This document shows, one piece after another, positions 17,613 to 62,270 of a stretch of 64,000 nucleotides of DNA (within the stretch, counting starts at the first letter, position 1; each line of letters starts with the position of its first letter). Below the pieces are notes generated by a model, which saw nothing but the letters and a program-made list of their open reading frames with translations, was not told where the DNA came from and ran no database searches. The stretch is from Squalus acanthias (lineage: Eukaryota). Made by a program: the position numbers and the translations under genes. The stretch lies in contig CM059453.1 of NCBI GenBank assembly GCA_030390025.1, forward strand, positions 7,812,001 to 7,876,000, written 5' to 3'.

Positions 17613-17619
17613 GTAAAAT

Positions 17620-22225: not shown

Positions 22226-22322
22226 TCTTAACAGCTTCCCGTACATGCTGTTAAATGTTATCTTGAATCTTGGTATAATCTTAGAGCAATAATGAAGAGC
22301 AAGGTTTTTTTTTATATTTTAG

Positions 22323-22422
22323 GATCATTTTGGAGAATTGTCATGCCAACCAGAGCCGCCGTCGCAGTTCTCATTCTGATTGGCATCATTGTCTTGGTGA
22401 CGATAGAGATTGATTCACACAG
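22323..22422 (+). CDS. Gene A transmembrane exon (Arg-containing)
   Basis: ttttAG|GA..AG|GTATG; GSFWRIVMPTRAAVAVLILIGIIVLVTIEIDSHR. Confidence 0.85.
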
Positions 22423-23218: not shown

Positions 23219-23303
23219 GAAGAAGGTAAATATCTCTGTTGGGGTCTCTCCCACAGACAAGGGTGCAGCGATTTACTGTGTGTTGCAGAACCCACTGAAC
23301 TGA
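23219..23303 (+). CDS. Gene A short cytoplasmic exon with stop
   Basis: tctttcAG|G, phase 2 matching the TM exon; RKKVNISVGVSPTDKGAAIYCVLQNPLN* then G|GTAAGT. Confidence 0.7.
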
Positions 23304-23704
23304 GGTAAGTGAGGAGATGGAATGTTGAGACAATTGTCTGGGTTCACATTACAGACACATCCAAGGGTTAAACAGATGTTATAGCAACTGGTTTGACCGT
23401 GTTCTTAAAGGGTGGAATAGCCTCCTCTCCCATGAACAGGGAAATGTTGCAGTGGCAATTGTGTGCATTGATCGGGCAAATGGGATCATGGACATTTTCT
23501 CAGGTCTGGACTTATTTTGAAATGAGTCGGTCTAAAATAACACCTTCCCAATGTCATTATACACATTAACCAGAGTAATGAATACTCTACGACTATATTA
23601 TCTCTTGCGGTTAAAATTCTAAACCCATAGTGTAAGGCCAGAGCAGGGCCAAATCGCATCGTTATTCTCCAGCCTATTTTGTGAATATTCCGCCATGTGT
23701 CTTG

Positions 23705-30089: not shown

Positions 30090-30830
30090 ATAGGACCATT
30101 CTGTGTTAAACCCAAAGTGTGCCCCGAAGTTGACCACACCTCACATCACCTGACATTCTCAAAGCAAACTGGGCCTTGTGTGGAGCATAATTGAGCAGAG
30201 TGCATTGCACAAACCTTCATTCTGGGATTGACCAGACATACGGCATCACTTGTTGTTAATACAAAACTGGGCCTTGGAGCTGAACACACCTCCCTAAATG
30301 AGTCCCTAAATCCCAACTGGGCCCTGGATCTGTAAAGACATTTCTAATCTAGACAGTCAAACCAAGCAGACGCCTGGATTGAACACACATTCAAAAAAAT
30401 AGTCAAGAAAGAAACAAAAGAAAAAAAAGAAAAAAACAATTTCAGTCCTCAATCTGAACACACATTCATAAATGTGTCCAGAAAACCCAACTGGTCTCTG
30501 GGCCTGAACATATATTTTTATACTGGTCACTAAAGCCAAGCTGTGACCTGGGTCTGAACACACATCCCTAAACTAGTCAGTAAAGCCAAGCTGAGACCTG
30601 TGTCTGAACACACATCCGTAAACTAATCAGTCAAACCAAACTGGGCCGGCAAACTGGATAGAAAAACAAACAAACTGGGCCTTGGATCTGAACCCAAGCC
30701 CACCAACACACACACAATGCAACGGGTGTCCCCACTTATGATTTTATCATCTTATTTGTTTAAAAAGAAAAACTGGGCCCTGGAACTGAACTCACATCCC
30801 TAAACTAGCCTGTAAATCCAAAGTGTGACA
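30090..30830 (+). repeat. Degenerate 50-bp minisatellite array upstream of gene B
   Basis: Best units at 30532 and 30582, plus diverged actgggcc..ctgaacacac units. Confidence 0.75.
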
Positions 30831-32493
30831 TGGTTCTTAGCAAGCATTCCCTGTCTCCCTCTTTCTCTGTCATATTCTCTCTCACAGGCTTTCTCTCTCT
30901 CACTCTTTATTCGGTAGAAAACCTAATAGGTAGCATTAAAATTTGATCTTAAGAAGCTGAGATTTTTGATGTAAATAGTGGCCTAATATTTATGTTATTA
31001 AATAGAGTGCAAGAACTCTATTTAATAGTTACAGCAACAGGTGGTACTAGGAAGTTACCAGGTGCAGGAAGTACTGTGAGAGTAATTAAGTGGGGTAGAA
31101 TTTGATATTGTCAGTGGCATAAAGAAATGAAGGAAACTGCTTAACTCAACAACAGGGTCGTGCTTAAGAAACCCAGCAAAAAGCACATAGCATACCTTCA
31201 AGGAGATAATAAATTTAAATACATAACAAGAAATAGAAAATGCAAACTAATAATACAGTGTGAATGAAATCATTGCAATGTGGAATATCTTAGGTGTTGT
31301 TGGATGTAGGTTTGGGCGGAGAGGTGGGGTTGGAGATTATTCCCGAGACAGCAGAAAAATAAGCAATTTGCTCAGGAAACTGTAACGGATTTCATATTTA
31401 GAACTGTGCAAATGGAAAAGAGTGAGTTGTTCAAACTGCACGAGGCTCATCCGAGGTGCTTTACTGAGATCTATAAGGTAATGTAGCGATTGATCACTGA
31501 CCCCTTCATGGTAGCAGTGATACGGTCCTCTTATCTTCCAACTAATCTGAACTGATTCTGCTTCTTAATCAGGTGCGAAATGCGCCCAGTTTGAAGCTGG
31601 ACTGTGTTCGAATGAGATGCCCGTTTGGATCCAGGATTTGATCCCACTGATCAATTTGCAGGGTTTTTTCCTGTAGATAAAAATATCCACGTTATTTCCA
31701 GCAGCATTGACCCTCCAATCTAAATGCTCACGTCACACCTCACAGTTCTAGTACTAAAATCAGAATCTTCATAAACCCGTCATTGTAGCAACTCGGATCT
31801 CAATGAGTTAATTTCAGCAGATTTCATCTCGCTGCAGTGTCAGTATAAACAGCTGAAGTCACTTCTATAAATGGCACTTTACCCACTGGAAACTTTTTAC
31901 TGATACACTTCTTTGTATCTTTTGGCATTTCAGATACGTGTTGTGTCCCCGAACGACTGAAGGTGATCAACCCACACGTCTGTAGACAACGGCTACAGGA
32001 ATAACCACCGCTTCACACTTCAAACACTCACAGTGCAAGGGCTGATAAATTGCTCAGTGTGTGGGAGTTGTGAGTCGGGGCTTCTAAAGCTGGTGGAGAG
32101 GCGATTTTAGATTTTGCAATCTAAAGTGTCACCGCCTGTCCTGTAACTGTACAGATGATGAGGGGTTCATCTCTGCTCAGGGTTAATCAGCAGTAACCGG
32201 GCCTCATCATATCGTGTAACTGAGGGCCAATCACTAATGCACACTGTCATATTCGAAGTGGCCCCAGATTTGCAGCAGTTTTGATCATCAACATTTGAGG
32301 AGTGGCGAAAGCTGTGTGAGCTATCGTGGCTCTCAATGATTGGTGGGTGGCGAACAGCTGACCTCCTAATACTCTGATTCGATTCGCTATGGACTCCAGT
32401 CTATTACCGGCGAATGGAATCTAGAAACTTGATTAATTATATCTGAGATAAAAACAATTTCTGCCATTTTGACATCGTCAACCGCCTCCAGTC

Positions 32494-32536
32494 ATGAAGA
32501 GTATTACATTGATCTCCATTCTGATATTTAGCGAAG
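32494..32536 (+). CDS. Gene B leader exon
   Basis: MKSITLISILIFSE + G|GTAAAA; joins the V exon in frame to give ..FSEVVHSSRW. Confidence 0.8.
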
Positions 32537-32930: not shown

Positions 32931-33311
32931 TTGTTCATAGTTCACGATGGTCTGTGAAGGTGCCGTGGAAGGTGTCGGCGGTGAGCGGATCATGTGCTGA
33001 GATCCCGTGTACATTTGATTATCCCGCCTCTGGCCGCAATCCAGGGTGTATGTGGTTAAAGGGAGGTCCTAAACCTGGTACCTCAGGGGTCTCGATTGTC
33101 TATGATTCCAGTGATGCAAACAATAAAGACTATAACGATAGAGGACGAATTGAATTCACCGGCGATTTTCTAAAGAAACAATGTTCCTTACACATTAATG
33201 TCACCAGGAAGAGCGATGCAGGTGACTATTACTTCAGAGTGACGATCACCACCGCCCGGAATATAACAGATCAATACGTTTCCAAATCTCCTGTCTCTCT
33301 TTCTATTTTAG
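32931..33311 (+). CDS. Gene B Siglec V-set (sialic-acid-binding) exon
   Basis: 381 nt, phase 1-1; N-terminal W, GSCAEIPCTF, QCSLHI, DAGDYYFRV with essential Arg codon at 33236-33238. Confidence 0.92.
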
Positions 33312-34116
33312 GTAAGATTTTTTGTTTGCTCCTGTTGTATATTATATTCCATCTCCTCAGTGCCATTGAAATTACGACTAACATACCAATATCCCGAGTA
33401 ACTGTTGGCCCATGTCACGGGATACAGCGGCAGGACTGCTCCGCTGACTCTCACCCAGGTGTGTGTTATGTTTTGACTTGAACTGTAATAGGGCGCAGGC
33501 CTTCTTAATAACTTACAGAAGCTCCCTGGCAAGGCAAGAAGAATACTTTATCATACGAATATAATAAACTGCAGGTGGAGGAAATATACAGGTAGATGTG
33601 AAATTCTATGCAAAGGAAGCAGGTGGACCATTTGTGTAAATAGACTGCTTGATGTGGTGCCGAAGCGTTACGCCAACAGTGTCCCAGATTCTATTCCATG
33701 TCTGTGCTTGGGATAGAATCTAGGACACGCTTAGTCTAATGACTCAGTGTCAGATCAAACAATTAATTTACCCAAAGCGGCATGGGCGGGTTGAATTCTT
33801 GCTGATATTTGAAAGTTTCATTTTGCATTTTGAACAATGCAGTGAGTGCGTGGTCAATAAATCGCCTGACAATAATGTGAATAATTCACGTGATAAAGCG
33901 ACTGACTATTAATTAAACGAGTACATAAATGCTCCGATTGATTCTTTAACTCTAAGAACTTTTGGCATATTTCGATGCACCATAGCGCGGGAGGAAAACA
34001 GTAGAATTAATTCTTAAGGGGATATTTTCTCAGACTTTGGGCTGAATCACCTTGCACACCATTGGCCATTTTAAAATTGAAATCTACTGTAACACGAATG
34101 TCCTTCTCTCCTTATT

Positions 34117-34428
34117 ATAAACCACGGATATCAGTCTCTGGGGAATTGATTGCTAGAAAACCAGCCCACCTGATCTGCTCAGTCACCCACAGTTGCCCGT
34201 CCGCCAACCTTGAACTGATGTGCACTCATGACTAAGTTGTCCCTCCTTTTCTGCCAGAGAGAAAAACTTCAAAAGGAAATGGCGACAATGTCGATGGTTC
34301 CCAGAAGGTTTCATCCACTTTCAACTTCAGCCCATCACCGGACCATCATGGGAAGAAACTGAGATGTAAACCTATAGCCGACGGTGCCACAGCTACCGTT
34401 CAACCAACTCTTACACCGGATGTTAAAT
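34117..34428 (+). pseudogene. Gene B inactivated Siglec domain-2 (C2-set) exon
   Basis: KPRISVSGEL..LICSVTHSCP..FNFSPSPDHHGKKLRC; no AG at the expected acceptor (ccttatt|ata), in-frame TAA 34233-34235, intact GTAAG donor. Confidence 0.85.
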
Positions 34429-36126: not shown

Positions 36127-36384
36127 ATGGCCCACAAAAACCAGCCATCAATTCCTCTATAGCGGCAGTGGAAGGGAGCTCTTTATTATTAAACTGCACG
36201 GCCCGGGGGACCATACCGGGCAACTTAACCTTGGTCCTAAATGGTGAAGAGATCAGCAGGTCTTCCACTGGGGAACTGAAGCAGATATTCCACAACATTA
36301 GTTCTGAAGATAACGGTGAATATTGGTGCGCGGCTGAAAATAACTTGGGAAAAGCGAACAGCTTCACACAGATTTCTGTGCAAT
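36127..36384 (+). CDS. Gene B Ig C2/I-set exon (D3)
   Basis: 258 nt, phase 1-1; EGSSLLLNC..EDNGEYWCAAENNLG; cAG and GTAAGT. Confidence 0.9.
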
Positions 36385-40460: not shown

Positions 40461-40724
40461 CAAACATGTTGCTCCAGGAAATATATGGATTAATTGACTC
40501 CTCATTGGCTCGATGTAATTTCATGCCTCAGTTATTGCCTTGCTAGAATTTAGGGGAAAGGAAAGCCTGACGAAGCATTAAATGAATGCAACATTAACTG
40601 GTTCTAAAAAAAACTCGTTATGTGCAGTGACCTCTCTGCTTAATCGAAACGCCGAAATTGGTTCTATTTAGACACTGCAAACTGCTGTATGGAAACTATC
40701 TCAAGCTGGCTTCTCTGTTTTCAG

Positions 40725-41012
40725 ATAAACCCACAATAGTATCAGGCCCGACCTGCACCAGCTCTGAGGGTGGGGTTCATTGTATCTGCAGTGTCAGAGC
40801 CAACCCCCCAGCAAACATCACCTGGGGCATCAATGGGAGGAACATCACTGCGAACAGTTCAGATATCAATATCCTCTGCTCGGAGTTGAAAAGTCACCTG
40901 GTGCAGAGCTCCCTGACACTGACTCAACCAACTGGAACTGATCTCCTGATCTCATGTTTTGGAGTAAACGAGCATGGCATTACTGTCGGAAAATATCAGC
41001 TCCAATCTGAAG
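40725..41012 (+). CDS. Gene B membrane-proximal Ig exon (D4)
   Basis: 288 nt, phase 1-1; HCICSVRANPPANITW..ISCFGVNEHG. Confidence 0.9.
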
Positions 41013-41649
41013 GTATATATTGCATTTTACTGTAATTTAATTACTGCGAATGTTTCTGTCCATCACCTGTCAGTGACTAACTCAACGGTGTTAGTGTCAG
41101 CATGTTCCAGTTCCACTGAGCTGAAATATCATTCTTATCTGCAAAGTAGGACTGAATCCAATTTTAATTTCAGTAGTGTTTGGGACTGGTTCATGACTGA
41201 GAGCTACCTCACTGAAAGTTACGATGGGAATAATTCATGTGAAGTTTAGAGTCTGGTATCTGAATTTGATTATTGTCGCCTTGTTTTTGTGAAGATAGGA
41301 GGGATAATATAAAACACTCGAAGCAGCGTGTGATCTTTCATAAAATAAACTCTTCTGACTCAGTGACACACTCGATGAAATCATGTTTCCTCTCATTGTA
41401 TCGGTAGTGGGGTACAGTCGATCAGTTCAACATTTTTTCACAAATATTTCAGCCTACTGCCGGTTTTGTTGTCCTGATGATATTCTGAAAGAACTACACA
41501 GTGCGATAACACTGACAATGGAGCCAGGAGAACTTCGATAACGGAAAGAGCCGGTTATAGACTGAATTAACTTATCGGATAGCAAGCGAGCAGATCCGAG
41601 TATGCGGCGTGGATTGATGCAGTCTCTCAGGGAGACTGCGATATTTAAT

Positions 41650-41890
41650 GGTTTGAAGAAGAGCAGGGGAGTTACCTCTGGTGCCCTGGCCAATATTTAT
41701 CCCTAAACCAATAACACAGAATCAGATTTATCTGCTGATTTACTTTATGGCTGTTTGTGGGATCTTGCTGTGCGCAATTTTGCGGCAACGTTCCCTACAT
41801 TACAACGGTGACTACACTTCAAAAGTACTTCATTGTCTGTAAAGCGCTTTGAGACGTCGGCTAAAGCGCTATATAAAAACAAGTTCATTT
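41650..41890 (+). mobile_element. SacSINE1-like DeuSINE 3' part
   Basis: Duplicate of 21980-22225. Confidence 0.7.
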
Positions 41891-41990
41891 TGTTCTTAAC
41901 AGCTTCCCATACATGCTGTTAAATGTTATGTTGAATCTTGGTATAATCTTAGAGCAATAATGAAGAGCACGGTTTTTTTTTATATTTTAG

Positions 41991-42090
41991 GATCATTTTG
42001 GAGAATTGTCATGCCAATCAGAGCCGCCGTCGCAGTTCTCATTCTGATTGGCATCATTGTCTTGGTGACGATAGAGATTGATTCACACAG
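41991..42090 (+). CDS. Gene B transmembrane exon (Arg-containing)
   Basis: GSFWRIVMPIRAAVAVLILIGIIVLVTIEIDSHR; canonical AG/GT. Confidence 0.85.
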
Positions 42091-42888
42091 GTATGGCTCA
42101 TATTACTTATACTCGTGCTTTAATAAGACAGATTTCAAAAGGGCGGGACATCAGAATTTAAGCCCATGAGCAAATATTGCTTAATATAATTTACCCCAGA
42201 TATCATTGACCCTGAATCTCAGCGAAGAGTTGACAAGGGAAGGCTTGCTGGAGTTCAGGTGTCTTGTGAAGGGAAAGTAGGGGAATGTCAGAAGTTCAGC
42301 GTCCCATGTCTGGTCTTTCACTTCCTAGTTCAAAGATTGTACATCAAGGGCCAGTCCAGAACTTGGGTGCAAAATCTAGTCTGTCACTTGAGCGGAGGCG
42401 CCGTATTTCATACCAGACAATTTAAGCTGAACACGGTTTGGCAGCTCAAAGCTCCCGTGGCCATATTGGCGGAAGACCTCATGACTCAGGAGTCCATAAA
42501 ATGCTCCACAGAACCATTGCTGGACACGAAAGGGCAAATTCCGGTGCATTTTTAAGACTTGGCGGAAATTGCTATGGTTATTCTGCACCAGTAGAGGCCG
42601 CTCGCTTAGCATCCATAAAATGTTCAGTGAACACTGAAATTGTCAAAGCAGATCAAGATAGATATATCCAGCTTCATCAGATAGAGATAATGCTTTCTTT
42701 GGAATTAGGAAAGTGTAGAGATAGAACAGAAACGGGAATTAAATTTGGTCGCAGCCAATCAGGAAACATTAACAAGAACGAGTTACTATAGTGCGCCCCA
42801 TGTGGTTCAACACAGGGACACTGGGTGGTGTATTGAAGCGAATTATCTGTAATTAGGAGACGTGAATCATTTGTATTTTCTGTTTCAG

Positions 42889-42973
42889 GAAGAAGACAAA
42901 TATACATGTCGGGGTCTCTCCTGCAGACAAGGATGCAGCGATTTACTGTGTGTTGCAGAACCCAATGAACTGA
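42889..42973 (+). CDS. Gene B short cytoplasmic exon with stop
   Basis: RKKTNIHVGVSPADKDAAIYCVLQNPMN* then G|GTAAGT. Confidence 0.7.
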
Positions 42974-44431
42974 GGTAAGTGAGGAGATGGAATGTTGAGA
43001 CCATTGTCTGGGATCACATTACAGACACATCCAAGGGTTAAACAGATGTTATATGTACTGGTTTGACGGTGTTTTTAAAGGGTGGAATGGCCTCTTCACC
43101 CCATGAACAGGGAAATGTTGCACAGGCAATTGTGTGCATTGATCGGGCAAATGGGATCATGGACATTTTCTCAGGTCTGGACTTATTTTGAAATGAGTCG
43201 GTCTAAAATAACACCTTCCCAATGTCATTAGACACATTAACCAGAGTAATGAATACTCCCCGATTATATTATCTCTTGCAGTTAAAATTCTAAACACATA
43301 ATGTGAGGCCAGAGCAGGGCCAAATCGCATCGCATTTCTACAGCATTTTTGCATCTTCCTCCATGTGTCTTGGTGTCAGTTTGGCTGATTTGGTAGCGCG
43401 CACTCTCTGAAGCTGAAGGTTGTGGTTTGCGACCTCACATCACGATTTGAGCCTTTCAGCTCGCGTGTGACTCCGGTGTTGTACTCCGGGCGTGCCGCAT
43501 TGTTGGAGCTTCGGCATTTCTGATATACCGAGGCTCTTCGCCAGCTCGATGTTCTCAATGTCATGCGCTGTGAGAGGGACAGGACAGACTCCTCCACACA
43601 TCTTAATCCCAGACCCAGGCTGCCTGTTCTAGTAGTTCAGGTGTATGTTAGAAATCTCATGCACTACTGCAAGAAGAATAGGGATTGCGCCACACGTGGT
43701 GGTTAGAACTCCTCCAAAGCCAGCAAATTGTGACTGCTTGGCCATTGATCTCATTTGCTGTTTGCAGTCGCTTGTTGGAAGCAGGTTTACTGTAGCACGC
43801 CCATTGTAATGCATTGGGTAGAAGGTGTTGCTGTCCTGCTAATTCGCCAGATGAATACCTAAAACTTTTTTAGTTATCTGATGGTTTTTCTTTACCCAGG
43901 GGCTCATCGACACTTGTAATAATTTATCGGCTCTTGTGATGAGTGCGAATTCGCTGCAACAATTCAAAAAGAAACTGGACCAACATAAGAACATAAGAAA
44001 CAGGGGCAGGAATAGGCCAATTGGCTCCTCGAGCCTGCACCGCCATTCAATAAGATCATGGCTGATCTTGGGCTCAAAGCCACTTCCCCACCCGTTCCCC
44101 ATAACCCTTCAATCCCTTATCTTGCAAAAATCTGTCTATTTCCACCTTAAATGTATTTGATGACCCAGCCTCCACAGCTCTCTGGAGCAGAGAATTCCAC
44201 AGATTTACGACCCTCTGAGAGAAGAAATTCCTCCTCATCTCAGTTCTAAAAGGGCGACCCTTTATTCTGAAACTATGTCCCCGAGTTCTAGATTTCCCCA
44301 CGAGGGGAAACATCCTCTCTGCATCTACCTTGACGATCCCCGCCAGTATCTTATATGTTTCAATAAGATCACCTCTCATTCTTCTAAATTCCAATGAGTA
44401 TAGGCCCAACCTGCTCAACCTTTCATCATAA

Positions 44432-47155
44432 GTCATTAGGACGAATTCCTTCCTTGGGCTAATATCAGTGTATACAAATCTTAGGTGGGATGTTGGGTGA
44501 TCTACCTCATGGACACTGTTGTCCCCTTGGAACTCGTGTTGTTCATCTTCGGGGTCGCAGAAGAATTTTGCAGATTCCTGAATTGGCCGAGTGCTATTTA
44601 CATATTTTTGGCTCCCGCGAGAGGTTGCATGGTGGTGAGAGGGAATATTGCCGTCATGATGCATTGTTGCGTCTTGACTCTTTTGGATAGGCTCATTGGC
44701 CAGTCGATTATTTCCTGTTCGTCTTTTCAGACGTCTATATTTTCCAAAGCTCAGAATGCGTCCATCACTGAGTGAGAACAATTAAAAATAATCAGAGAAG
44801 CGAGAAAGAGGGCTATTCTTGTACAGGAAGTGCCCTCACACCTTGTCTCTTGCTCCCTATCTAACCCCCTCCATTCTGTTACAGAGACAAGACCAGTACA
44901 GAAATATTACTATCAGATGGTCTACATCCAACAATCATCGCAAAGTCTAGAGGATCTGCACGCAATCGATGAATGTTTGAAGTCTTCACAAACATGAAAG
45001 ATATCCCCAGAAGGAGGAGTCCAGTGAATACACCGCGATTAAGTTTAAATCAAATCCAGTGGGATTTAATCCATTTGGACAGTTGGAGCTCATCAATATC
45101 TCAACACAACTGGTTCATCAGATAGAAAAGAACCTCACATTCCAGGGATTGCTGAGAAAATGCGCATATTTCGCAGATTAATTGTTAGCATTTTTCATTT
45201 CTGCTTGTTGCTTTTTAAATTTACAATCCCGCACATGTTTTCATTCAAACCACATGTCTGAAATGCTGTGGGCTTTAAAGGTCCGAGTAACTTTGAAACA
45301 GTTTTTGACGTGCTTTAATAGAATATCTGTCTTCATCAGTAATGTTAACAGTGTTTCCATTGCAGAGCTCCCTCTACTACATTCATAGACAACCCTGGAG
45401 GTCAACGATGAACCACTCTATCGTCAGATGGATTAGTTTGTCAGCCTCTGCCAGCCCAGTATAATAAACCTTCACATCGCAGTATCAGTTTCCAGCAGTT
45501 TCCTTTACAACACCCGGACTTTTATCAACCTATTTTCAATTCCAGAATAGACATTCAGAATCAGGGTGCAATGTAAGCAAAAACATTACAAAGAATGGAT
45601 CTGGGTATTTTGTCAAGTATTGCTGCACGCATTAGATTCCGCCCGTTATCAAACTGTACAGAACATAAAAACATAAGAAATAAGAGCAGGGGTAGACCAT
45701 TCGTCCCCTCGAGACTGCTCCGCCATTCAATAAGATCATGGCTGATCTGAACTTCGATCTCAACTCCACTTCCCTGCCCGCTCCCCATAACCCTTGACTC
45801 CCCTATTGTTCAAAAATCTGTCTGTCTCCACCTTAAATATATTCAATGACTCCGCCTCCACAGCTCTCTGGGGCAGATAATTCCAAAGCTTCACGACTGA
45901 GAGAAGAAATTCCTCCTCATCTCCGTTTTAAATGGGCGACATTTTATTCTGAATCTATGACCACTAGATCTAGATTCCCCCTCTAGGGGAAACACCCTCT
46001 CTGCTTCTACCCTGACAAGCCCCCTCAGAAAATTGATTCTTGCTCAAAAATGGTGAGACCAGTGTTAGAAGAGGATCACGATGTAACGCATAATTTGTCA
46101 TTCTTTAGTGTATACAATGCTTTATTAAAAAGTCATAAATCGTTTACCTTGCTATCTGTTACTTGAGCTCAGTGGAGCTGAGAGTGGAACACTTGACATA
46201 CATTCAAAATAAGCATCCACCTTTCCCCGGTCAGGCACAGTGCAGCCAATTGAAGGAATAGGCTCCTGTTAAGGCTTCTGTACAGCAACTGCAAAACATC
46301 CCCTTTTACCTGTTTGTGGTGCTGACAGTGAGAATATTTCTGGGGGATTATATTTAGGTAGTGACATTGCAAATGCACATCGGGAACACTTCCCTTCTTC
46401 AGTATCTCCACTGAAATCGCAAACGTTCCCTGGGTGTTATGATTGCAATAGAAATAAGCATTACCATGAGGGTCACACTGTGACTAAAACACAGCCTCCG
46501 GAGGAATATTCCGACAATCTCCTTCATATGAGTCTCTAATTCAGGTCAAGAGAGGCCGACCGAACAACTAAGATTATAAAATATGTTATAATAATAGGAC
46601 TCTGGTTATTTCTACCTCTTTATCAGTGGTGCAATAAGTGCTCACTTTTCACATTTGTCTGTCAGGTCAGTGGTATTTATCATATATATTAGATTATGTA
46701 TTTACTCTGTTGTAAATTAGCACAATAATTCCGCTAGATTTCGGAGCCTGGATACATGAGCAGGTCCCAAACCAACATCCACAGCTCCCAGTGCGAGATA
46801 CAATGAACAATCTTCATCTCCCCACCGTTATCAATTAGCCAACCATGATGTGAGATTCAATGAATGAGACACTGGGCTTCAGGGATAATCAATAACTGTT
46901 CCAATGTACGACACAATAGGTACATTACACATCGCCACAGGTAGTCGATTCAGACCACCCACACCGAGATACAATGCGTGGTTCAGGTGCCCTCAGGAAA
47001 GTTCATTTGATAGCCCCGTCTGCAATATTCAATGGGAAATCTACATATGTCCATTGCCAATCTACTAACCACCGCCAATGTGAGATATATTGGGTGAGGT
47101 ACAACCTCTTATGAAAATTAACTTTAACATAGTGCCTTGAAGTACAAAACGTCCT
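44432..47155 (-). pseudogene. Degenerate antisense Ig-superfamily receptor relic, unit 2
   Basis: DVGLxTC, VHLQC..GERWM (ORF 46169-46411), ETAGN*YC; cytoplasmic-like frame open ~110 codons (KYRRLKRR..KYVNS..FVYTDI) up to the CR1 junction. Confidence 0.45.
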
Positions 47156-49919: not shown

Positions 49920-50705
49920 TAGGAACATTCTGTGTTAAACCCAAACTGTGCCCCGAAGTTGACAAACCTCACATCACCTGAATTCTCAAAGCAAACTGGG
50001 CCTTGTGTGGAGCATAATTGAGCAGAGTGCATTGCACAAACCTCCACTCTGGGATTGACCAGACATACGGCATCAACTGTTGTTAATGCAAAACTGGGCC
50101 TTGGAGCTGAACACATCTCCCTAAATGAGTCCCTGAAACCCAACTGGGCCCTGGATCTGTTAAGACATTTCTAATCTAGACAGTCAAACCAAGCAGACGC
50201 CTGGATTGAACACACATTAAAAAAAATAGTCAAGAAAGAAACAAAAGATATCAAAGAAAAAACAATTTCAGTCCTCAATCTGAACACACATCCCTAAATG
50301 TGTCCAGAAAACCCAACTGGTCTCTCGGCCAGAACATATATTTTTATACTGGTCACTAAAGCCAAGCTGTGACCTGGGTCTGAAAACACATCCCTGAACT
50401 AGTCAGTAAAGCCAAGCTGAGACCTGGGTCTGAACATACATATTTAAACGAGTCAGTAAAGCCAAGCTGAGACCTGGGTATGAACACACATCCCTAAACT
50501 AGTCAGTCAAACCAAACTGGGCCCGCAAACTGGATAGAAAAACAAACAAACTGTGCACTGGATCTGAACCCAAGCCCACCAACACACAGACAATGCAACG
50601 GGTGTCCCCACTTATGATTTTATCATCTTATTTGTTTTACAAGAAAAACTGGGCCCTGGAACTGAACTCACATCCCTAAACTAGCCTGTAATTCCAAAGT
50701 GTGAC
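49920..50705 (+). repeat. Degenerate 50-bp minisatellite array upstream of gene C
   Basis: Clear units at ~50358, 50408, 50458; one more than upstream of gene B. Confidence 0.75.
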
Positions 50706-52369
50706 ATGGTTCTGAGCACGCATTCCCTGTCTCCCTCTTTCTCTGTCATATTCTCTCTCACAGCCTTTCTCTCTCTCACTCTTTATTCGGTAGAAAACCT
50801 AATAGGTAGCATGAAAATTTGATCTTAAGAAGCTGAGATTCTTGATGTAAATAGTGGCCTAATATTTATGTTATTAAATAGAGTGCAAGAACTCTATTTA
50901 ATAGTTACAGCAACAGGTGGTACTAGGAAGTTACCAGGTGCAGCAAATACTGTGAGAGTAATTATGTGGTGTAGAATTTGACATTGTCAGTGTCATAAAG
51001 AAATTAAGGGAACTGCTTAACTCAACAACAGGGTCGTGCTTAAGAAAACCAGCAAAAAGCACATAGCATACCTTCAAGGAGATAATAAAGATAAATACAT
51101 AACAAGAAATAGAAAATGCAAACTAATAATACAGTGTGAATGAAATCATTGCAATGTGGAATATCTTAGGTGTTGTTGGATGTAGGTTTGGGCGGAGAGG
51201 TGGGGGTGGAAATTATTCCCGAGACAGCAGAAAAATAAGCAATTTGCTCAGGAAACTGTAACGGATTTCAGATTTAGAACTGTGCAAATGGAAAAGAGTG
51301 AGTTGTTCAAACTGCACGAGGCTCATCCGAGGTGCTTTACTGAGATCTATAAGGTAATGTAGCGATTGATCACTGACCCCTTCATGGTAGCAGTGATACG
51401 GTCCTCTTATCTTCCAACTAATCTGAACTGATTCTGCTTCTTAATCAGGTGCGAAATGGGCCCAGTTTGAAGCTGGACTGTGTTCGAATGAGATGCCCGT
51501 TTGGATCCAGGATTTGATCCCACTGATCAATTTGCAGGGTTTTTTCCTGTAGATAAAAATATCCACATTGTTTCCAGCAGCATTGACCCTCCAATCTAAA
51601 TGCTCACGTCACACCTCACAGTTCTAGCACTAAAATCAGAATCTTCATAAACCCGTCATTGTAGCAACTCGGATCTCAATGAGTTAATTTCAGCAGATTT
51701 CATCTCGCTGCAGTGTCAGTATAAACAGCTGAAGTCACTTCTATAAATGGCACTTTACCCACTGGAAACTTTTTACTGATACACTTCTTTGTATCTTTTG
51801 GCATTTCAGATACGTGTTGTGTCCCCGAACTACTGAAGGTGATCAACCCACACGTCTGTAGACAACGGCTACAGGAATAACCACAGCTTCACACTTCAAA
51901 CACTCACAGTGCAAGGGCTGATAAATAGCTCAGTGTGTGGGAGTTGTGAGTCGGGGCTTCTAAAGCTGGTGGAGAGGCGATTTTAGATTTTGCAATCTAA
52001 AGTGTCACCGCCTGTCCTGTAACTGTACAGATGATGAGGGGTTCATCTCTGCTCAGGGTTAATCAGCAGTAACCGGGCCTCATCATATCGTGTAACTGAG
52101 GGCCAATCACTGATGCACACTGTCATATTCGAAGTGGCCCCAGATTTCCAGCAGTTTTGATCATCAACATTTGAGGAGTGGCGAAAGCTGTGTGAGCTAC
52201 CGTGGCTCTCAATGATTGGTGGGTGGCGAACAGCTGACCCCCTAATACTCTGATTCGATTCGCTATGGACTCCAGTCTATTACCGGCGAATGGAATCTAG
52301 AAACTTGATTAATTATATCTGAGATAAAAACAATTTCTGCCATTTTGACATCGTCAACCGCCTCCAGTC

Positions 52370-52412
52370 ATGAAGAGTATTACATTGATCTCCATTCTGA
52401 TATTTAGCGAAG
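52370..52412 (+). CDS. Gene C leader exon
   Basis: MKSITLISILIFSE + G|GTAAAA. Confidence 0.8.
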
Positions 52413-52806
52413 GTAAAATATTCATTTTAATAATTAATGTCAGAAGCGATTTCCATTCTGTGGCAAATTAATACGTTTATTGTTTGTGGAGATAGTACAT
52501 GTTTAGTTGATAATGTGCAAATTCCCGATTTGCGCATTTAATGTATATTTCATTCGAAAAATTATCTTATATTTTATAAGATTGATTTAATATTTACTCT
52601 CTGATTTATCGACTTTCAATGGAATACTTAATGGAATATGAAGAGTTTTAATGAAACTTTCTCGAGTTTTAATGGATGTATTAATGAATATGTTAGTGGA
52701 TGTTTAAAGATTAAATGAATAGTATTCAACTTGACGGTCAGGGTATGTATTAATTGCGATATTATTGCGGATTTCAATGTGTGTTTAATTTCTGTTTTTT
52801 CACCAG

Positions 52807-53187
52807 TTGTCCATAGTTCACGATGGTCTGTGAAGGTGCCGTGGAAGGTGTCGGCGGTGAGCGGATCATGTGCTGAGATCCCGTGTACATTTGATTATCC
52901 CGCCTCTGGCCGCAATCCAGGGTGTATGTGGTTAAAGGGGGGTCCTAAACCTGGTACCTCAGGGGTCTCGATTGTCTATGATTCCAGTGATGCAAACAAT
53001 AAAGACTATAACGATAGAGGACGAATTGAATTCACCGGCGATTTTCTGAAGAAACAATGTTCCTTACAGATTAATGTCACCAGGAAGAGCGATGCAGGTG
53101 ACTATTACTTCAGAGTGAAGATCACCACCGCCTGGAATATAACAGATCAATACGTTTCCAAATCTCCTGTCTCTCTTTCTATTTTAG
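52807..53187 (+). CDS. Gene C Siglec V-set exon
   Basis: 381 nt; DAGDYYFRV retained; 3 amino-acid differences from gene B. Confidence 0.92.
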
Positions 53188-54053
53188 GTAAGTGTTTTTA
53201 TTTGCTCCTGTTGTATTTTATATTCCATCTCCTCAGTGCCATTGAACTTACGACTAACATACCAATATTCCGAGTAATTGTTGGCCCATGTCACAGGATA
53301 CAGCGGCAGGACTGCTCCGCTGACTCTCACCCAGGTGTGTGTTATGTTTTGACTTGAACTGTAATAGGGCGCAGGCCTTCTTAATAACTTACAGAAGCTC
53401 CCTGGCAAGGCAAGAAGAATACTTTATCATACGAATATATTAAACTGCAGGTGGAGGAAATATACAGGTAGATGTGAAATTCTATGCAAAGGAAGCAGGT
53501 GGACCATTTGTGTAAATAGACTGCTTGATGTGGTGCCGAAGCGTTACGCCAACAGTGTCCCAGATTCTATCCCATGTCTGTGCTTGGGATAGAATCTAGG
53601 ACACGCTTAGTCTAATGACTCAGTGTCAGATCAAACAATTAATTTACCCAAAGCGGCATGGACGGGTTGAATTGTTGCTGATATTTGAAAGTTTCATTTT
53701 GCATTTTGAGCAATGCAGTGAGTGCGTGGTCAATAAATCACCTGACAATAATGTGAATTATTCACGTGATAAAGCGACTGACTATTAATTATACGAGTAC
53801 ATAAATGCTCCGATTGATTCTTTAACTCTAAGAACTTTTAGCATATTTCGATGCACCATAGCGCGGGAAAAAAACAGTAGAATGAATTCTTAAGGGGATA
53901 TTTTCTCAGTCTTTGGGCTGAATCACCTTGCACACCATTGGCCATTTTAAAATTGAAATCTACTGTAACGCGAATGTCCTTCTCTCCTTATTATAAACCA
54001 CGGATATCAGTCTCTGGGGAATTGATTGCTAGAAAACCAGTACACCTGACCTG

Positions 54054-54510
54054 TAGGCGGTTCACTAGATTTATTTCAGGGATGAGAGGGCTGTCGTATG
54101 ATGATAGGTTCTGAAGAATGGGCCTATAATCTCTGCGTTTAGAAGAATGCGAGGTGATCTCATTGAAACATGCAAAATCTGAAGGGGATTGACAGGGTAG
54201 ATGCTGAGAGGTTGTTTCCCCTGGCTGGATTGCCTAGAATTAGGGGGCATAGTCTCAGGATAAGGGGTAGGCCATATAAGTTGAAGATGAGCAGGAATTC
54301 TTCACTCAGAGGGTTGTGAATCTTTGGAATTCTCTGCTGTAGACTGCTGTGAATGCTGAGTTTCAAGGCTGAGGTGAATCAAGGGATATGGAGATCGGGT
54401 GGGAAAGTGGAGTTGAGGTCGATGATCAGCCATGATCTTACTGAATGGCGGAGCAGGCTCGAGGGGCCATATGGCCTACCCCTGCTCTTACTTTTTATAT
54501 TCTTATGTTA
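54054..54510 (+). mobile_element. CR1 3' end (inverted half of the element at 56440-57213)
   Basis: Starts at ..ggttcactaga, which follows ..ggaggcggtgcaac in CR1 ORF2. Confidence 0.85.
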
Positions 54511-54849
54511 TTAAATGTAATTATCAGTGCGGATGAGGAATATAAAATAATAGATGTGACAACTAAAGAAGAATATTGAAGTAAGATATAGTGGCTATCT
54601 TGCAATCTATTAATTCAAAATCCATTTCCTGATTTTTATGCCCTCGATCTTACGCTTATGTCAAACATACGCATTCCTTCTCCTCTTCTCTTCAACGATT
54701 TGAAGATGGATATGTTTTCCCGCATAATGTTCTATTCCACCGGTACATCAACCTCGTGGCAATTCCTACCAGATTAAGTACGGTGGACTTTCCCATGTCT
54801 TACACAGGGGTGCTGAGGCTAATTATAGAATCCAGACTAACGCCCCAGC

Positions 54850-55520
54850 TAAATTGTGCCACAGGTTAGCAAGGCCATGAAAAAAAACAAGCACTAGAGT
54901 TTATTTCGAGAGGGATAGAATTGAAAGGTATGGAGGTTATGCTAAACCTGTATCGAACATTGGTTAGGCCACACTTGGAGTACTGCATACAGTTCTGGTC
55001 ACCATATTATAAAAAGGATATCGAGGCACTGGCGAGGGTGCAGAGATTTACAAGGATGATACCAGAAATGCGAGGGTATACATATCAGGTAAGGATGAAC
55101 AGGCTGGGTCTCTTTTCTCTTGAAAAAAGAATGCTGAAGGGTGACCTAATAGTGGGCTTTAAAATTGTGGCAGGCTTTGATAGAGTCGATGCAGAGAGAA
55201 TGTTCCCACTTGTGGGGAAGAGCATAAATGGTGGTTATCAATATAAGATAGTCACCAAGAATTCCAATTGGGAATTCAGAAGAAATTTTTTACCCAGAGT
55301 GAGGTGAGAATGTGGAACTCGCTACCACAGGGAGTGGTTGAAGCGAATAGTAAAGATGCATTTAAGGGGTGGCTGGACAAGCATATGAGGGAGAAGGGAA
55401 TAGAGGGTTACGCTGATAGAATTTGATTAGGAAAGATAGGAGGAGGCTCGAGTGGAACATAAACGCCGGCATGGACTGGTTGGGCCCAATGATTTGTTTC
55501 TGTGCCGTATGTCCTATATA
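54850..55520 (+). mobile_element. CR1 3' fragment (inverted counterpart of 34720-35765, no HE1)
   Basis: ORF 54921-55307 LYRTLVRPHLEYCIQFWSP. Confidence 0.9.
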
Positions 55521-55811
55521 TGTACGTGAGTTAGCTCAGACCATGAATGGACTCTCCCTGGCCTGTATGTTCCAGTTACTCTGTGGCTGAAACGACATCA
55601 AACATTGGGAGCCTTTGCAATAAAATTTCAGGTAAACCCTGGAGCGACCAATATTACTCATGGGTCTGGGGTAAATGTCAAATAATGTGACTTACATGAA
55701 GCTTCGATTACTTGTTTATCCAGGCGCGCTATCACTATATTCAATATAAAGACATCTATTGAACCGGTTTATCAACAAGTTGGTTGAATGAAGCTTAGAG
55801 TAGGCACTTAC

Positions 55812-56123
55812 ATTTAATATCCGGTGTAAGAGTTGCTTGAACGGTAGCTGTGACACCGTCGGCTATAGGTTTACATCCCAGTTTCTTCCCATGATGGTCC
55901 GGTGATGGGCTGAAGTTAAAAGTGGATGAAACCTTCTGGGAACCCTCGACCTTGTCGCCATTTCCTTTTGAAGTTTTACTCTCTGGCAGAAAAGGAGGGA
56001 CAACTTAGTCATGAGTCCACATCAGTTCAAGGTTGGTGGACGGGCAACTGTGGGTGACTGAGCAGGTCAGGTGTACTGGTTTTCTAGCAATCAATTCCCC
56101 AGAGACTGATATCCGTGGTTTAT
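55812..56123 (-). pseudogene. Gene C domain-2 exon, inverted and inactivated
   Basis: 312-nt reverse complement of 34117-34428 with the same TAA and the same lost acceptor. Confidence 0.85.
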
Positions 56124-56439
56124 AATAAGGAGAGAAGGACATTCGCGTTACAGTAGATTTCAATTTTAAAATGGCCAATGGTGTGCAAGGTGATTCAGCC
56201 CAAAGTCTGAGAAAATATCCCCTTAAGAATACATTCTACTGTTTTTTTCTCGCGCTATGGTGCATCGAAATATGCTAAAAGTTCTTAGAGTTAAAGAATC
56301 AATCGGAGCATTTATGTACTCGTATAATTAATAGTCAGTCGCTTTATCACGTGAATAATTCACATTATTGTCAGGTGATTTATTGACCACGCACTCACTG
56401 CATTGCTCAAAATGCAAAATGAAACTTTCAAATATCAAT

Positions 56440-57213
56440 TTGTTGCACCGCCTCCAAGGCAAGTATATCCTTCCTTATTTAAGGAGAACAAAACTGTGCA
56501 CAGTACTCCAGGTGTGGTCTCACCAAAGCCCTGTACAATTGTAGCAAGACTTCCTTACTCTTATACTCCAACCCCCTTGCAATAAAGTCCAACAAGCCAT
56601 TTGCCTTCCTTATTGTTTGCTGTACCTGCATGCTAGCTTTCTGTGTTTCTTGCACGAGGCCACCAAAATATCTCTGAACACCAACATTTGAAATGTTCTC
56701 ATCAGTTAAAATATATTCTGCTTTTCTATTCTTCCTAGCAAAGTGAATAACCTCACATTTCCCTACATTATACTCCATCTGCCACCTTACTGCCCACACA
56801 CTTAGTCTATCTATATCTCTTTGCAGACTCTTTGTGTTCTCCTCACAGCTTACTGTCCCAACTAGCTTTGTATCATCAGCAAACTTGGATACATTACACT
56901 CGGACCCTTCATCTTGGTCATTAATATAGATTGTAAATAGCTGAGACCCCAACACTGATCCTTGTGGCCCCACACTAGTTACAGCCTGCCAACCTGAAAA
57001 AGATCCGTTTATCCCTACTCTCTGTTTTCTGTTCGTTTACCACTCCTCTATCCATGCTATTATATTACCCCCAATCCCGTGAGCCCTAATCTTGTGTAAT
57101 AACCTTTTATGTGGCACCTTATCGAATGCCTTTTGGAAATCCAAATATACTACATCCACTGCTTCCCCTTATCTATCCTGCTAGTTACATCCTCAAAAAA
57201 CTCGAATAAATTT
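56440..57213 (-). mobile_element. CR1 RT fragment
   Basis: ORF 56479-56973 PQGSVLG..KFADDTKL..RPHLEYC. Confidence 0.9.
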
Positions 57214-57246
57214 GTCATTCAGAACCAATGACCTCATCTCTTGCAG

Positions 57247-57504
57247 ATGCCCCACAAAAACCGTTCATCAATTTCTCTATAGCGGCAGTGGAAGGGAGTT
57301 TGTTATGGTTATACTGCACGACCCGGGAGATCATACCGGGCAACTTAACGTTGGTCCGAAATGGTGAAGAGATCAGCACGTCTTCCACAGGTGAACTGAA
57401 GCACATATTCCATAACATTAGTTCTGAAGATAACGGTGAATATTGGTGCGTGGCTGACAATAACTTGGGCAAAGCGAACAGCTCCACACAGATTTCTGTA
57501 CAAT
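57247..57504 (+). CDS. Gene C Ig exon D3
   Basis: 258 nt, phase 1-1; EGSLLWLYC..EDNGEYWCVADNNLG. Confidence 0.88.
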
Positions 57505-57964
57505 GTAAGTGCTGTGTCAATCTATCAAATGTATATTGGGACATTAATCCGTCTTACAGTGATTAGGCATCGGTGTTGTTTTCCCCCAGTGTTCACATAA
57601 CTGTCTCAAAATCCGTCAGTTAGATTGTCAGAATAGTCAGTAAAAGAAGGAGAGTTGAACCCAATTCTTGGAGTAAACGACACTGTTGAAAAAACAACTG
57701 GAGACCCCAATACAAAACTCAAGTTGAATGTATCTCTGATTGGCTAAAACCAACTGAATGATTAATTGGGAAGATTTTCTGCTCGGCCGACTGAACCCAG
57801 TGGCCAGGAAGTATCGGAACATTTTAGTCCATCACAAAGGTAGAAATGTATAACGTTAACTAAAGACACAAACTGAGCAGAAGCTATTGAGGTGTTCACC
57901 AGAAATGACATGTTGGAGGAGTTAGTCGGGTTTATTTCTAAGATTGTAATTCTGGATGCCTCAC

Positions 57965-58430
57965 AACATAAGAACATAAGAATTAGCATCAGGAGTTGGC
58001 AATTCGGCTCCACGAGCCTGCTCCGCCATTCAATATGATCATGCCTGATTTTCGATCTCATCCCAACTTTCCTGCACTATCCCCATATCGCCAGATTACC
58101 CTCGAGTCCAAAAATCTAAGAGGTCTCACCTTTAAAATACTCAACGATTCAGCATCCACAGCCATCTGGGGTAGAGAATTCCAAAAATTCACAATCCTCT
58201 GAATGAAGAAGTTCCTCCTCATCTCAGTCTTAAATGGCTTCCACTTATCCTGAGACTGTGCCCCCTGGTTCTAGACTCTCCAGCCAGGGGAAGCACACTC
58301 TCAGCATCTAACCTGTCAATCCCCCTCAGAATAACTTGTTTCAATGCGATCACCTCACATTCTTCTAATACTCCAGCTCGTATAGGCTCATTCTACTCAA
58401 TCTCTCCTCAAAGGACAACCGTCTCATCCC
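57965..58430 (-). mobile_element. CR1 3' fragment
   Basis: Uninterrupted counterpart of the element split in genes A and B. Confidence 0.8.
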
Positions 58431-58681
58431 ACATGTTGTTCCAGGAAATATAGCGATCAATTGACTGCTTGACGCAATGTTAAACCTGATTTATTGCCTT
58501 GCCAGAGACTAGGGAAAAGAAAGTCTGATGAAGCCTTAAATGAATGTAAGATTTAATGGTTCTGATCGAGCTCGTTATGCGCAGTGACCTCTCTTCTTAA
58601 TCTAAACGCCGAAATTGGTTCTACTTTGGCGCTGCAAACTGCTGTATGGAAACTATCTCAATTTGACTTCACTTTTTTTAG

Positions 58682-58969
58682 ATAAACCCAAAATAGTATC
58701 AGGCCCGACCTGCACCAGCTCTGAGAGTGGGATTCATTGTAACTGCAGTGTCGGAGCCAAGCCCCCAGCAAACATCACCTGGGGCATCAATGGAATAAAC
58801 ATCACCGCGAACAGTTCAGATATCCAAATCTTCTCCTTGGAGTTGAATAGTCACCTGGTGCAGAGCTCCCTGACACTGACTCACCCAAATGGAACTGGAC
58901 ACCGGATCTCATGTTTTGGAGTAAACGAGCATGGCGTTACTGTCGGCAAATACCAGCTCCAATCTGGAG
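58682..58969 (+). CDS. Gene C membrane-proximal Ig exon (D4)
   Basis: 288 nt; HCNCSVGAKPPANITW..ISCFGVNEHG. Confidence 0.9.
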
Positions 58970-59429
58970 GTAAATACTAAATTTTCCTGTAATATAAGTA
59001 CTGCGAACGGTTTGGTCCATCACCTGTCAGTGACTAACTGAACGGTGTTAATGTGAACAAATAACAGTTCCATTCGACAGCTGCATGCCAAATCCAAGTA
59101 CTTTAAGTCTGATCCATTGGATATTTGAAGCATTGTATGGTCTGGCCAAAAACTCATTGAATGTTGCGATGGGAATATTGAATGCATTTTAAATCTGTCT
59201 CTCATTTCCGGGTGTGTTTCTTGTCGCCTTTTTTTTCTCACGATTGTAAGGGATTAAAATATAACATTAGAAGTAGCGCGCAATCGTTAATACAACAGAA
59301 CCTTCTGAATCAATTTAGCCCTTTGCGAATTCAGGTGTCCTCTCACTCTAACGGAAGCCGGCAGCAGTCTATCATTTAATTGAACATTTGCACAATTTTA
59401 GTATCGATTTCTGATGTAGGATACACTTG

Positions 59430-59930
59430 TCTTAGAGGCGGTTCACTAGATTGATTCCTGAGATGAGAGGGCTGTCCTATGAGGAGAGTTTGAGTAGATT
59501 GGCCCGACACTCTCTGAAGATTAGAAGAATGAGAGGTGATCTCATTGACACATATAAGGTTCGGAGGCGATTGACAGGGTAGTTGCTGAAAGGTTGCTTT
59601 CCCTGGCTTGAGAGTCCAGAACTAGCGTGCATAGTCTCAGGATAAAGCGTGAGCCACGTAAGACTGAGATGAGGAGGAATTTATTCACTCAGAGGGTTGT
59701 GAATCTTTGGAATTCTCTACCCCAGACGGTTGTGGATGCTGAGTCGTTGAGTATATTCAAGGCTGGGATCGATAGATTTTTGGACTGCAGATGAATTAAG
59801 GGATATGGAGTTTGGGGAGGGAGTGGAGCTGCGATCGAAAGTCAGCCATTAACTTATTGAATGGCGAGCAGGTTGGAGGGGCCGTAGCACCGATTCCTGG
59901 TCCTAATTCATATGTTCTTTTGTTCTCATG
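59430..59930 (+). mobile_element. CR1 3' fragment
   Basis: Typical CR1 ORF2 end and 3' UTR. Confidence 0.8.
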
Positions 59931-60319
59931 AACTTGCTAGTTTTGAATATTTAGTCCAATGTGTCCACCTCGCTCAATAAAACACATTTTGGAGCTAGTT
60001 CAGATTGCCCCTGGATGGTTGTCATGGAGATATTATGAGAAGATAACATGAGATAATCCTGAAAATTGAACCAGCATATTTGGGATAATTGAAAGTGCAG
60101 ATGCTAGATTGATTTGAAGTATTGGATAGCAGGCGAACAGATCCGAGTGTGTAGCGAGGATATAGGCAGGCTGTCGGTGTTATACCTGGAAACATATATT
60201 TAGTCAGATCATTAATCACAAGCTTTCAAGGTGGCTGGTCCCATGCAATTCAAACACTGTATCGTATGAAGAGGAATCGCTAGTTCTTTAAGGCCCAATT
60301 TTGCAAAACTTCTCAGTTA

Positions 60320-60680
60320 GAATCATAGAAATTTACGGCACAGAAGGAGACCATTCGGCCAATCGTATCTGTGGCGGACGAAAAAGAGCTATCCAGCCCG
60401 ATCCCACTTTCCAGTTCTTGGTCCGTAGCTTTGCAGGTTACGGTGCTTCAAGTGCATATCCAAGAATTTTTTTAATGCTATTAGGGTTTTTGCCTCTATC
60501 ACTCTTTCAGGCAGTGAGTTTCATTTCCCCAGAACCTTCTGGGTGAAATAGGTTCCATTAAATCCCCTCTAATCCTTCTACCAATTACTTTAAATCTATG
60601 CCCCCGGGTTATTGACCCCTCACCTAAGGGAAATAGGTCCTTCCTATCCATTCTTTCAAGGATCCACATAATTTTATACA
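60320..60680 (-). mobile_element. CR1 3' fragment
   Basis: DLFPLGEGSITRGHRFK. Confidence 0.8.
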
Positions 60681-60784
60681 CGAAAAATTTGCATTAACTG
60701 AATCAACATGTGTTACCAATTCTGAGATGTGGACCAGGTATTGTTTATTTACATTTTCTTATTTTGATTTCTTTTGAACTTAAC

Positions 60785-62270
60785 ATAGGGGAGGTACCAG
60801 AGGACTGGAGAACAGCTAACGTTGTACCATTATTCAAGAAGGGTAGTAGGAATAAACCAGGGAATTTACAGGCCAGTGAGCCTACCATCAGTGGTAGGGA
60901 AATTATTGGAAAAAATTCTGAGGGACAGAATTAGTCTACACTTAGAGAGGCAAGGATTAATGAAAGATAGTCAGCATGGCCCTTTCAGGGGCAGATCATG
61001 TCTAACCAATTTGATTGAATTTTTCGAGGGGGTGACTCGGTGTGTGGATGAGGGTAGTGCAGTTGATGTAGTCTATATGGACTTCAGTAAGGGTTTTGAC
61101 AAAGTCCCACATGGGAGACTGCTCAAGAAGCTAAGAGCCCATGGGGATCCAGGGCAATTTGGCACATTTCATCTAAAATTTGCTTAGTGGCAGGAGGCAG
61201 AAGGTGATGGACGAAGGTTGTTTTTGTGACTGGAAGCCTGTGTCCAGTGGTGTACCGCAGGGATCGGTGTTGGGTCCCTTGCTGTTTGTAGTGTACATTA
61301 ATGAATTAGATATGAATTCATGAGGTATGATCAGTAAGTTCGCAGATGACACGAACATTGCTGGTGTGGTTAATAGCGAGGAGGGAAGCCTCAGGCTACA
61401 GGACGATATAGACGAGTTGGTCAGATGGGTAGAACATTGGCAAATTGAATTTAAACCTGAAAAGTGCGAGGTGATGTATTTTGGGAGGACTAACAATGCA
61501 AAAGAATAAACAATGAATGGTAGCACCCTAGGAAGGACAGAGGATCAGAGGGACCTTGGTGTGCTTGTACATAGATCCCTGAAAGCAGCAGGACAGTTAG
61601 ATAAGGTGGTTAAGAAGGCATATGGGATAATTGCCTTCATTAGCTGAGCCATAGAATATAAGAGGAGGGAGGCATGATGGAGCTGTAAAAAACGTTAGTT
61701 GGGCCACAGCTGGAATATTGTGTGCAGTTCTGGTCGCCTCACTATAGGAAGGATATGATTGCATTAGAGAGGGTGCAGAGGAGATTCACCAGGATGTTAC
61801 CTGGGCTGGAGCGTTTCAGCTATGGAGAGACTGGACAGGCTGGGGTTGTTTTTCTTAGAGGAGTGAAGGCTGAAGGCGGACCTGATTCAGGTGTCCAAAA
61901 TTATGAGGGGCATAAATAGCGTAGATAGAAAGTAACTTTCCCCCTTAGTAGAGGGTTCACTAACCAGGGGACATAGTTTCAAGGTCAGGGGCAGGAGGAT
62001 TAGAGGGGATTTGAGGGAAAACTTTTCCACTCAGAGGGTGGTTGGAATCTGGAACTCACTGCCTGAAAGGGTGGTAGAGGCAGGAACCCTCACAACATTC
62101 AAGAAGCATTTAGACGAGCACTTGAAACGCCATTGCATACAAGGCTACGGACCAAGTGCTGGAAAATGGGATTAGAATAGACAGGGCTTGATGGCCGGCG
62201 CGGACCCGATGGGGCAAAGGGCCTCTTTCTGTGCTGCATAACTCTATGACTCTATGAGTATGACTCTATA
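60785..62270 (+). mobile_element. 5'-truncated CR1 LINE (RT)
   Basis: PEDWRTANVVPLFKKG, YMDFSKGFDKVPH, KFADDT; (actctatg)n tail. Confidence 0.92.

Follow-up and report, generated by a model that had tools for sequence, protein, structure and literature searches.

Arg-type transmembrane exons in a shark family of Siglec-like receptors with a predicted fit to FcR-gamma

Results

Siglec-like genes in the window

The window analysed is a stretch of 64,000 nucleotides from the genome of Squalus acanthias (contig CM059453.1, hereafter C30; C30:7812001-7876000). Three related genes, designated A, B and C, are located in it. Coordinates without the contig prefix are those of the window, and TM denotes transmembrane.

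17568-23304, + strand: gene A, with leader 17568-17612, D4 21057-21344, Arg-type TM exon 22323-22422 and tail exon 23219-23304
32492-32536, + strand: gene B leader exon (ATG 32494), signal-peptide-like, matching the start of Heptranchias P0001/P0003
32931-33311, + strand: V-set exon of gene B, of Siglec type, with Arg 33236-33238 in alignment with sialoadhesin's F-strand Arg
34117-34428, + strand: gene B D2 (second Ig) exon, dead; acceptor AG lost, in-frame stop 34233-34235
36127-36384, + strand: D3 Ig exon of gene B, with an open frame and canonical splice sites
40725-41012, + strand: D4 Ig exon of gene B, likewise with an open frame and canonical splice sites
41991-42090, + strand: TM exon of gene B, Arg-type and 100 nt long, entered in phase 1 and left in phase 2; Arg at 42020-42022 and Glu at 42074-42076
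42889-42974, + strand: first cytoplasmic exon of gene B, with stop TGA at 42971-42973 and 2 nt fewer than in the Leu type
44886-45053, + strand: homologue of the last exon that carries the ITIM, decayed through frameshift and stops, downstream of the gene B stop
52368-62733, + strand: gene C, the Leu-type partner, with leader 52368, V 52807-53187, D3, D4 and TM 62649-62733

Gene A consists of a leader, one Ig exon, TM and tail, the V, D2 and D3 exons being absent. The D2 of gene C is partial and inverted, and its tail exons lie beyond the window at C30:7879993 and 7881434. Each of the three genes has a 50-bp tandem repeat upstream of it (14139-14377, 30522-30643 and 50279-50519). Positions 2807-13760 are occupied by a tandem duplication of ~5.9 kb, 93-95% identical, with decayed open reading frames and no Pfam family match, possibly an old mobile or viral element.

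The ectodomain of gene B

When the V domain of gene B was searched against the PDB, the top 18 of 36 matches were Siglecs, and the V exon matched the Pfam family Ig_CD22 with an E value of 1.9e-8. Alignment with sialoadhesin (1url/1od7) put the Trp at the N terminus, three Cys and the Arg of strand F in register, and the Cys pattern of Siglecs, with two in strand B and one in strand E, was present. These results bear out the Siglec-type ectodomain proposed in a preliminary description of this DNA. Gene B thus has a Siglec V-set with the F-strand Arg; gene A has no V.

Skipping of the dead D2 exon preserves the reading frame, both flanking exons being phase 1, and by this route gene B would yield a three-Ig protein (V-D3-D4) with roughly equal chances of being expressed or silent. 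Without D2, gene B is also without the inter-domain disulfide partner of Siglecs. The second domain expected of a Siglec is missing from gene B and present in the intact paralogues at C30:6920097 and 7779072. A search for expression listed no RNA run that contained the sequence. Of five runs found at a share of 0.05, four were aligned to 40650-43050 and covered an intronic repeat and, faintly, D4, but not the TM or tail exon, which counts neither for nor against expression. A functional gene B and a pseudogene from which no functional protein is made are about equally probable.

The Arg-type TM exon and its origin

The exon at 41991-42090 is bordered by a pyrimidine tract and AG on the upstream side and by GT on the downstream side. 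Its translation is SFWRIVMPIRAAVAVLILIGIIVLVTIEIDSH, in which the terminal R spans the junction with exon 42889-42974. The Arg codon is AGA (42020-42022). The counterpart in gene A reads PTR with the Arg at 22352-22354, whereas the counterpart in gene C is 85 nt long compared with 100 nt in gene B and has Leu (TTA) at 62681-62683; the preliminary description had placed all three residues correctly. It had also reported that gene C lacks an EIDS segment. The shorter stretch is real, but the alignment shows a loss of six codons (TIEIDS) together with one additional Pro codon.

Twelve copies of the Arg-type TM exon are found genome-wide, and gapless homologues occur in two annotated shark proteins; the exon is therefore not a chance reading. 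Over 344 nt that take in the intron flanks, the TM exons of genes B and C share 70% identity, and the exons 3' of the TM exon are also homologous. This homology argues that the Arg-type exon is a modified exon of the family and not an import from the LRC receptors; judged by sequence, it is a descendant of the family's own Leu-type TM exon. Exon shuffling from LRC receptors, or shared descent with them, was rejected on the homology to the TM exon of paralogue C with its intron flanks, and the earlier proposal of a Siglec ectodomain joined to an LRC-type segment, or of ancestry in common with LRC receptors, was not supported. Comparison of 11 in-frame copies within the genome revealed 9 nonsynonymous versus 1 synonymous change and no signal of purifying selection. 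Because, in addition, 24 of the 32 TM codons are invariant among the in-genome copies, invariance of the Arg within this genome says little.

Cytoplasmic tails and ITIM exons

The stop just before the donor of the gene B tail exon results from the exon being 2 nt shorter than in Leu-type genes. The tail produced is 33 residues long with a single Tyr motif (AIYCVL) which, having Ala at -2, is not a canonical ITIM. These features support an activating-type tail in gene B. A stop before the donor was present in all 11 of the Arg-type first tail exons found. The exon that follows is decayed in Arg-type genes and carries VLYAAV...EYAAI-type motifs in Leu-type genes.

The Leu-type tail exons (e.g. 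C30:7879993 and 7753629) also contain a stop in 11 of 11, and in each an in-phase internal consensus donor lies upstream of it. Splicing from this donor would remove the first Tyr motif while retaining the ITIM exon. Such a donor in all 11 exons, combined with loss of the old donor in three of them, indicates that Leu-type genes most likely splice early, at the inferred internal donor, and so include an exon that carries two ITIM-like motifs. The view that all Leu-type partners are broken by the stop was dropped on the evidence of the same donors. As in paired receptors, the V exons of the Arg-type gene B and the Leu-type gene C are nearly identical (98.4%) and are attached to opposite TM and tail modules, the ITIM of the partner being read through the inferred internal donor.

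The receptor cluster on the contig

Matches to the V exon on C30 span about 6.0-8.03 Mb. Counts of TM types cover 6.772-8.036 Mb (1.264 Mb), further V exons lying outside at 6.0-6.77 and 0.18-0.32 Mb. Within the 1.264 Mb, TM exons of the Arg type (12) and of the Leu type (11) lie intermingled. Every exon is intact in two Arg-type genes out of the 12 (6.91-6.92 and 7.77-7.79 Mb), and in both the sialic-acid Arg is replaced by Lys. The others comprise gene B and a twin, which lack D2 only, gene A, and seven with other lesions. The twin, at C30:7101780-7114748, has exons 99.5-100% identical to those of gene B and is a recent duplicate or a duplicated haplotype in the assembly.

The essential F-strand Arg was found in 6 of the 22 scored V exons of the subfamily. 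Six genes with a V of the gene B type all keep this Arg and open V, D3, D4 and TM exons, and all have a dead D2 acceptor; this D2-less form is possibly functional. An additional Cys, located two residues ahead of the C-strand Trp, is common to these six genes (window 32931-34428 plus five paralogues). About nine gene copies of the form V-D2-D3, with the last tail exon 300 bp later and no D4 or TM exon, lie at C30 6.78-7.63 Mb; several are head-to-head with genes of a second subfamily, and many are broken.

In the second subfamily, Arg occupies the same exon position in 6 of the 16 TM exons listed:

C30:6867320, 7321050, 7510411 and 7679359 (also 6841877 and 7297762): second-subfamily Arg TM exons, with ITIM-type tail exons

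The three second-subfamily Arg genes examined have ITIM-type tail exons, frameshifted in one, and D3 is frameshifted in all three.

Homologues in other sharks

Homologues are RefSeq shark proteins named MAG-like or Siglec-like (Mustelus XP_078093181.1, Cetorhinus XP_078392811.1, and others from Heptranchias, Heterodontus and Scyliorhinus), with 56-67% identity in V and D4. In a scan of 154 proteins, 97 of them with a hydrophobic segment, the Arg-type TM was identified in two, P0005 of Mustelus and P0020 of Cetorhinus. Aligned without gaps to the 32-residue TM of gene B, they are identical at 13 and 16 residues, respectively. The Arg-type TM was found in none of the eight Heptranchias representatives. 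Mustelus and Cetorhinus belong to different shark orders. Their retention of the Arg agrees with its predicted conservation in relatives, while the Glu of gene B, put forward as a second geometric feature, is Asp in Mustelus and Gly in Cetorhinus and could not be upheld as such. The P-I-R motif and exon length are kept in three shark lineages and the neighbouring residues vary.

In a tree of TM segments, which comprises only 33 columns, the three Arg-type sequences grouped together against seven Leu-type sequences with support of 95/91. The D4 tree, in contrast, was arranged by species, with the Arg-type and Leu-type sequences of Mustelus joined at 100/98 and all 24 rows of the Squalus acanthias genome at 100/99. 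Grouping of TM by type and of D4 by species indicates that the TM types are old and that the ectodomains above them have been homogenised.

Scyliorhinus torazame P0016 (internal) and Chiloscyllium punctatum P0068 also have an Arg, within a TM of different construction, which suggests repeated origins in sharks. Protein P0098 (Rhinoraja longicauda XP_078251460.1) is modelled as a Siglec-like protein with an ITAM-like tail at its end. This tail resembles that of DAP12, and the model is either a receptor that carries an ITAM itself or the result of a fused annotation.

TM geometry and candidate adaptors

TM windows were scored with the Kyte-Doolittle scale and an approximate insertion scale, simple scales used in place of a dedicated TM predictor. 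The Arg of gene B was at position 1-6 in the best windows of 21-23 residues and just outside the helix in the best 19-residue windows. It is followed by 17 apolar residues (17 also in Mustelus, 19 in Cetorhinus), and the Asp in the shark adaptors FcR-gamma and CD3-zeta by 15. Apart from the 19-residue windows, the placement agrees with an Arg in the outer part of the TM, as described previously. A PDB search with the TM exon returned no matches at E 10.

According to the available text of PMC1440944, the Arg of FcaRI is at TM position 3, the Asp of FcR-gamma at position 6 and the basic residue of DAP12 partners at 7-12; Arg favours FcR-gamma and Lys favours DAP12, and no assembly with DAP12 was obtained for FcaRI, with its Arg at 3. 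The two-residue offset between the Arg of gene B and the Asp fits, in sequence, the FcR-gamma geometry given in that text. Candidate partners for the proposed coupling are also encoded in the genome, in each case seen as a TM exon alone: one of the FcR-gamma type with Asp on contig C1222, for which the best PDB match was FceRI gamma (E 1.3e-11), and one of the CD3-zeta type with Asp on contig C5. Searches of the genome for DAP12 and DAP10 with PF07213, PF02189 and the skate ITAM-like tail found neither, and are uninformative, being three weak queries without a positive control. FcR-gamma or CD3-zeta is predicted, with a probability somewhat above even, to be the adaptor of the Arg-type receptors.

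Siglec-14 is a probable case of Arg being used for pairing with DAP12. Siglecs are stated to pair with DAP12 via Lys or Arg in the available parts of PMC6890642 and PMC9404585, and the contrast with DAP12 Siglecs drawn in the preliminary description is weakened as a result; the parts available of PMC13233462, PMC6288428, PMC6829431, PMC4345914 and PMC4042635 do not name the pairing residue. The shark receptors may be activating members of Siglec-like pairs coupled through the Arg to DAP12 or DAP10, simply a shark parallel of Siglec-5/14, a reading to which the paired anatomy shared with Siglec-5/14 and 11/16 and the use of DAP12 by all activating Siglecs in reviews (PMC13358205 among them, as far as its available text extends) both lend weight. 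It is nonetheless unlikely: DAP12 coupling typically involves a basic residue near the TM centre, usually Lys, whereas the Arg of gene B, 17 residues from the inner boundary, lies higher than the positions 7-12 reported for DAP12 partners, and the behaviour of FcaRI (PMC1440944, in the text available) argues in the same direction.

A lower probability still attaches to the Arg acting as an interface anchor at the outer membrane surface, with a short helix of 17-19 residues, in a tail-less, non-signalling decoy or uptake receptor that would be sialoadhesin-like in effect. Exclusion of the Arg from the best 19-residue windows is what such an anchor would give, and Arg occurs at the same position in the ITIM-tailed genes of the second subfamily; against this, 21 apolar residues are present in the Leu-type TM at the place of the 17 that follow the Arg in gene B, exon length and the P-I-R motif have persisted across the three shark lineages, and tail loss accompanies the Arg type in every one of the 11 tail exons found.

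Discussion

The results indicate that genes A, B and C very probably belong to an activating-type paired family of Siglec-like receptors. The exon at 41991-42090 would be the TM exon of the short-tailed Arg member of a shark pair, and activation is, on slightly favourable odds, expected to proceed by docking of the Arg on the Asp pair of an ITAM adaptor, predicted from sequence to be FcR-gamma (or CD3-zeta). An inhibitory ancestor would have gained the Arg and the longer TM exon once, before the split of Carcharhiniformes and Lamniformes, and the ectodomains would afterwards have been homogenised within species. A ligand, for the V domain of gene B a sialylated glycan, would cluster the receptor and signal to Syk via the adaptor, and signalling by the Arg type would counter the ITIM partner.

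The alternative with the poorest prospects, which overlaps the others, is that the whole Arg-type lineage is dying in the Squalus acanthias genome, with gene B a pseudogene and the family-level mechanism possibly intact elsewhere: at least one exon is missing or lost in 10 of the 12 Arg-type genes, D2 and with it the inter-domain disulfide partner is gone from gene B, and the ratio of changes in the TM exon is 9:1, but the six genes with a gene B-type V and a dead D2 acceptor still keep their other exons open along with the sialic-acid Arg, and between gene B and its Leu partners pN is below pS in V (0.010 versus 0.023-0.035) and in D3, albeit with few changes in these recent copies.

A more extensive form of the adaptor-coupled reading is possible but doubtful. 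In sharks, a family of paired Siglec-like receptors would be old and expanded, with activating members that work via FcR-gamma or CD3-zeta; this would be the first FcR-gamma-coupled Siglec, independent of the mammalian DAP12 Siglecs and of LRC receptors, and gene B would be a working three-domain sialic-acid receptor without the second domain. Siglecs are placed under Tetrapoda in the available text of PMC13262535; if the paired reading is true, paired activating and inhibitory Siglec-like receptors reach back to the cartilaginous fishes. It would also add a further independent switch from inhibitory to activating by a basic TM residue and tail loss, one in which the decayed ITIM exon can still be read, and if FcR-gamma is the adaptor, Siglecs are not bound to DAP12. 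No new mechanism is revealed. Neither an FcR-gamma-coupled Siglec nor a TM Arg in Siglec-like receptors of sharks was found described in the literature searched, from which subscription papers on Siglec evolution were missing, so that absence from print is not established. The RefSeq shark proteins named MAG-like or Siglec-13/14-like are of the same family; these names are automatic and make no mention of an activating type, and the modelled tails look mis-spliced.

Among known systems, the family resembles the Siglec-5/14 and Siglec-11/16 pairs, for which the available text of PMC13358205 describes a near-identical V in an ITIM-bearing member and a short-tailed partner with a basic residue, concerted evolution of the ectodomains and frequent gene loss. 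The shark family differs from these pairs in its independent origin and in having the Arg high in the helix with a predicted fit to FcR-gamma, rather than a central Lys. It differs further in having a dozen activating-type copies, in that most V domains lack the essential Arg, and in the absence of D2 from gene B.

LRC receptors encode the TM and tail in the terminal exon. In the shark family, by comparison, a phase-2 intron separates the TM exon, derived from a Siglec-like paralogue, from a distinct tail exon, and the ectodomain is a Siglec V-set plus C2. Judged through paralogue C and the Siglec V-set rather than by direct alignment with LRC exons, the Arg-type family would be of LRC descent in neither its TM exon nor its ectodomain. 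What it shares with FcaRI, LILRA, GPVI, OSCAR and NKp46 is an Arg that probably lies in the TM's N-terminal part and a short tail, the features by which such receptors are recognized in the available text of PMC1440944, and the likeness to FcaRI, LILRA and GPVI is convergent.
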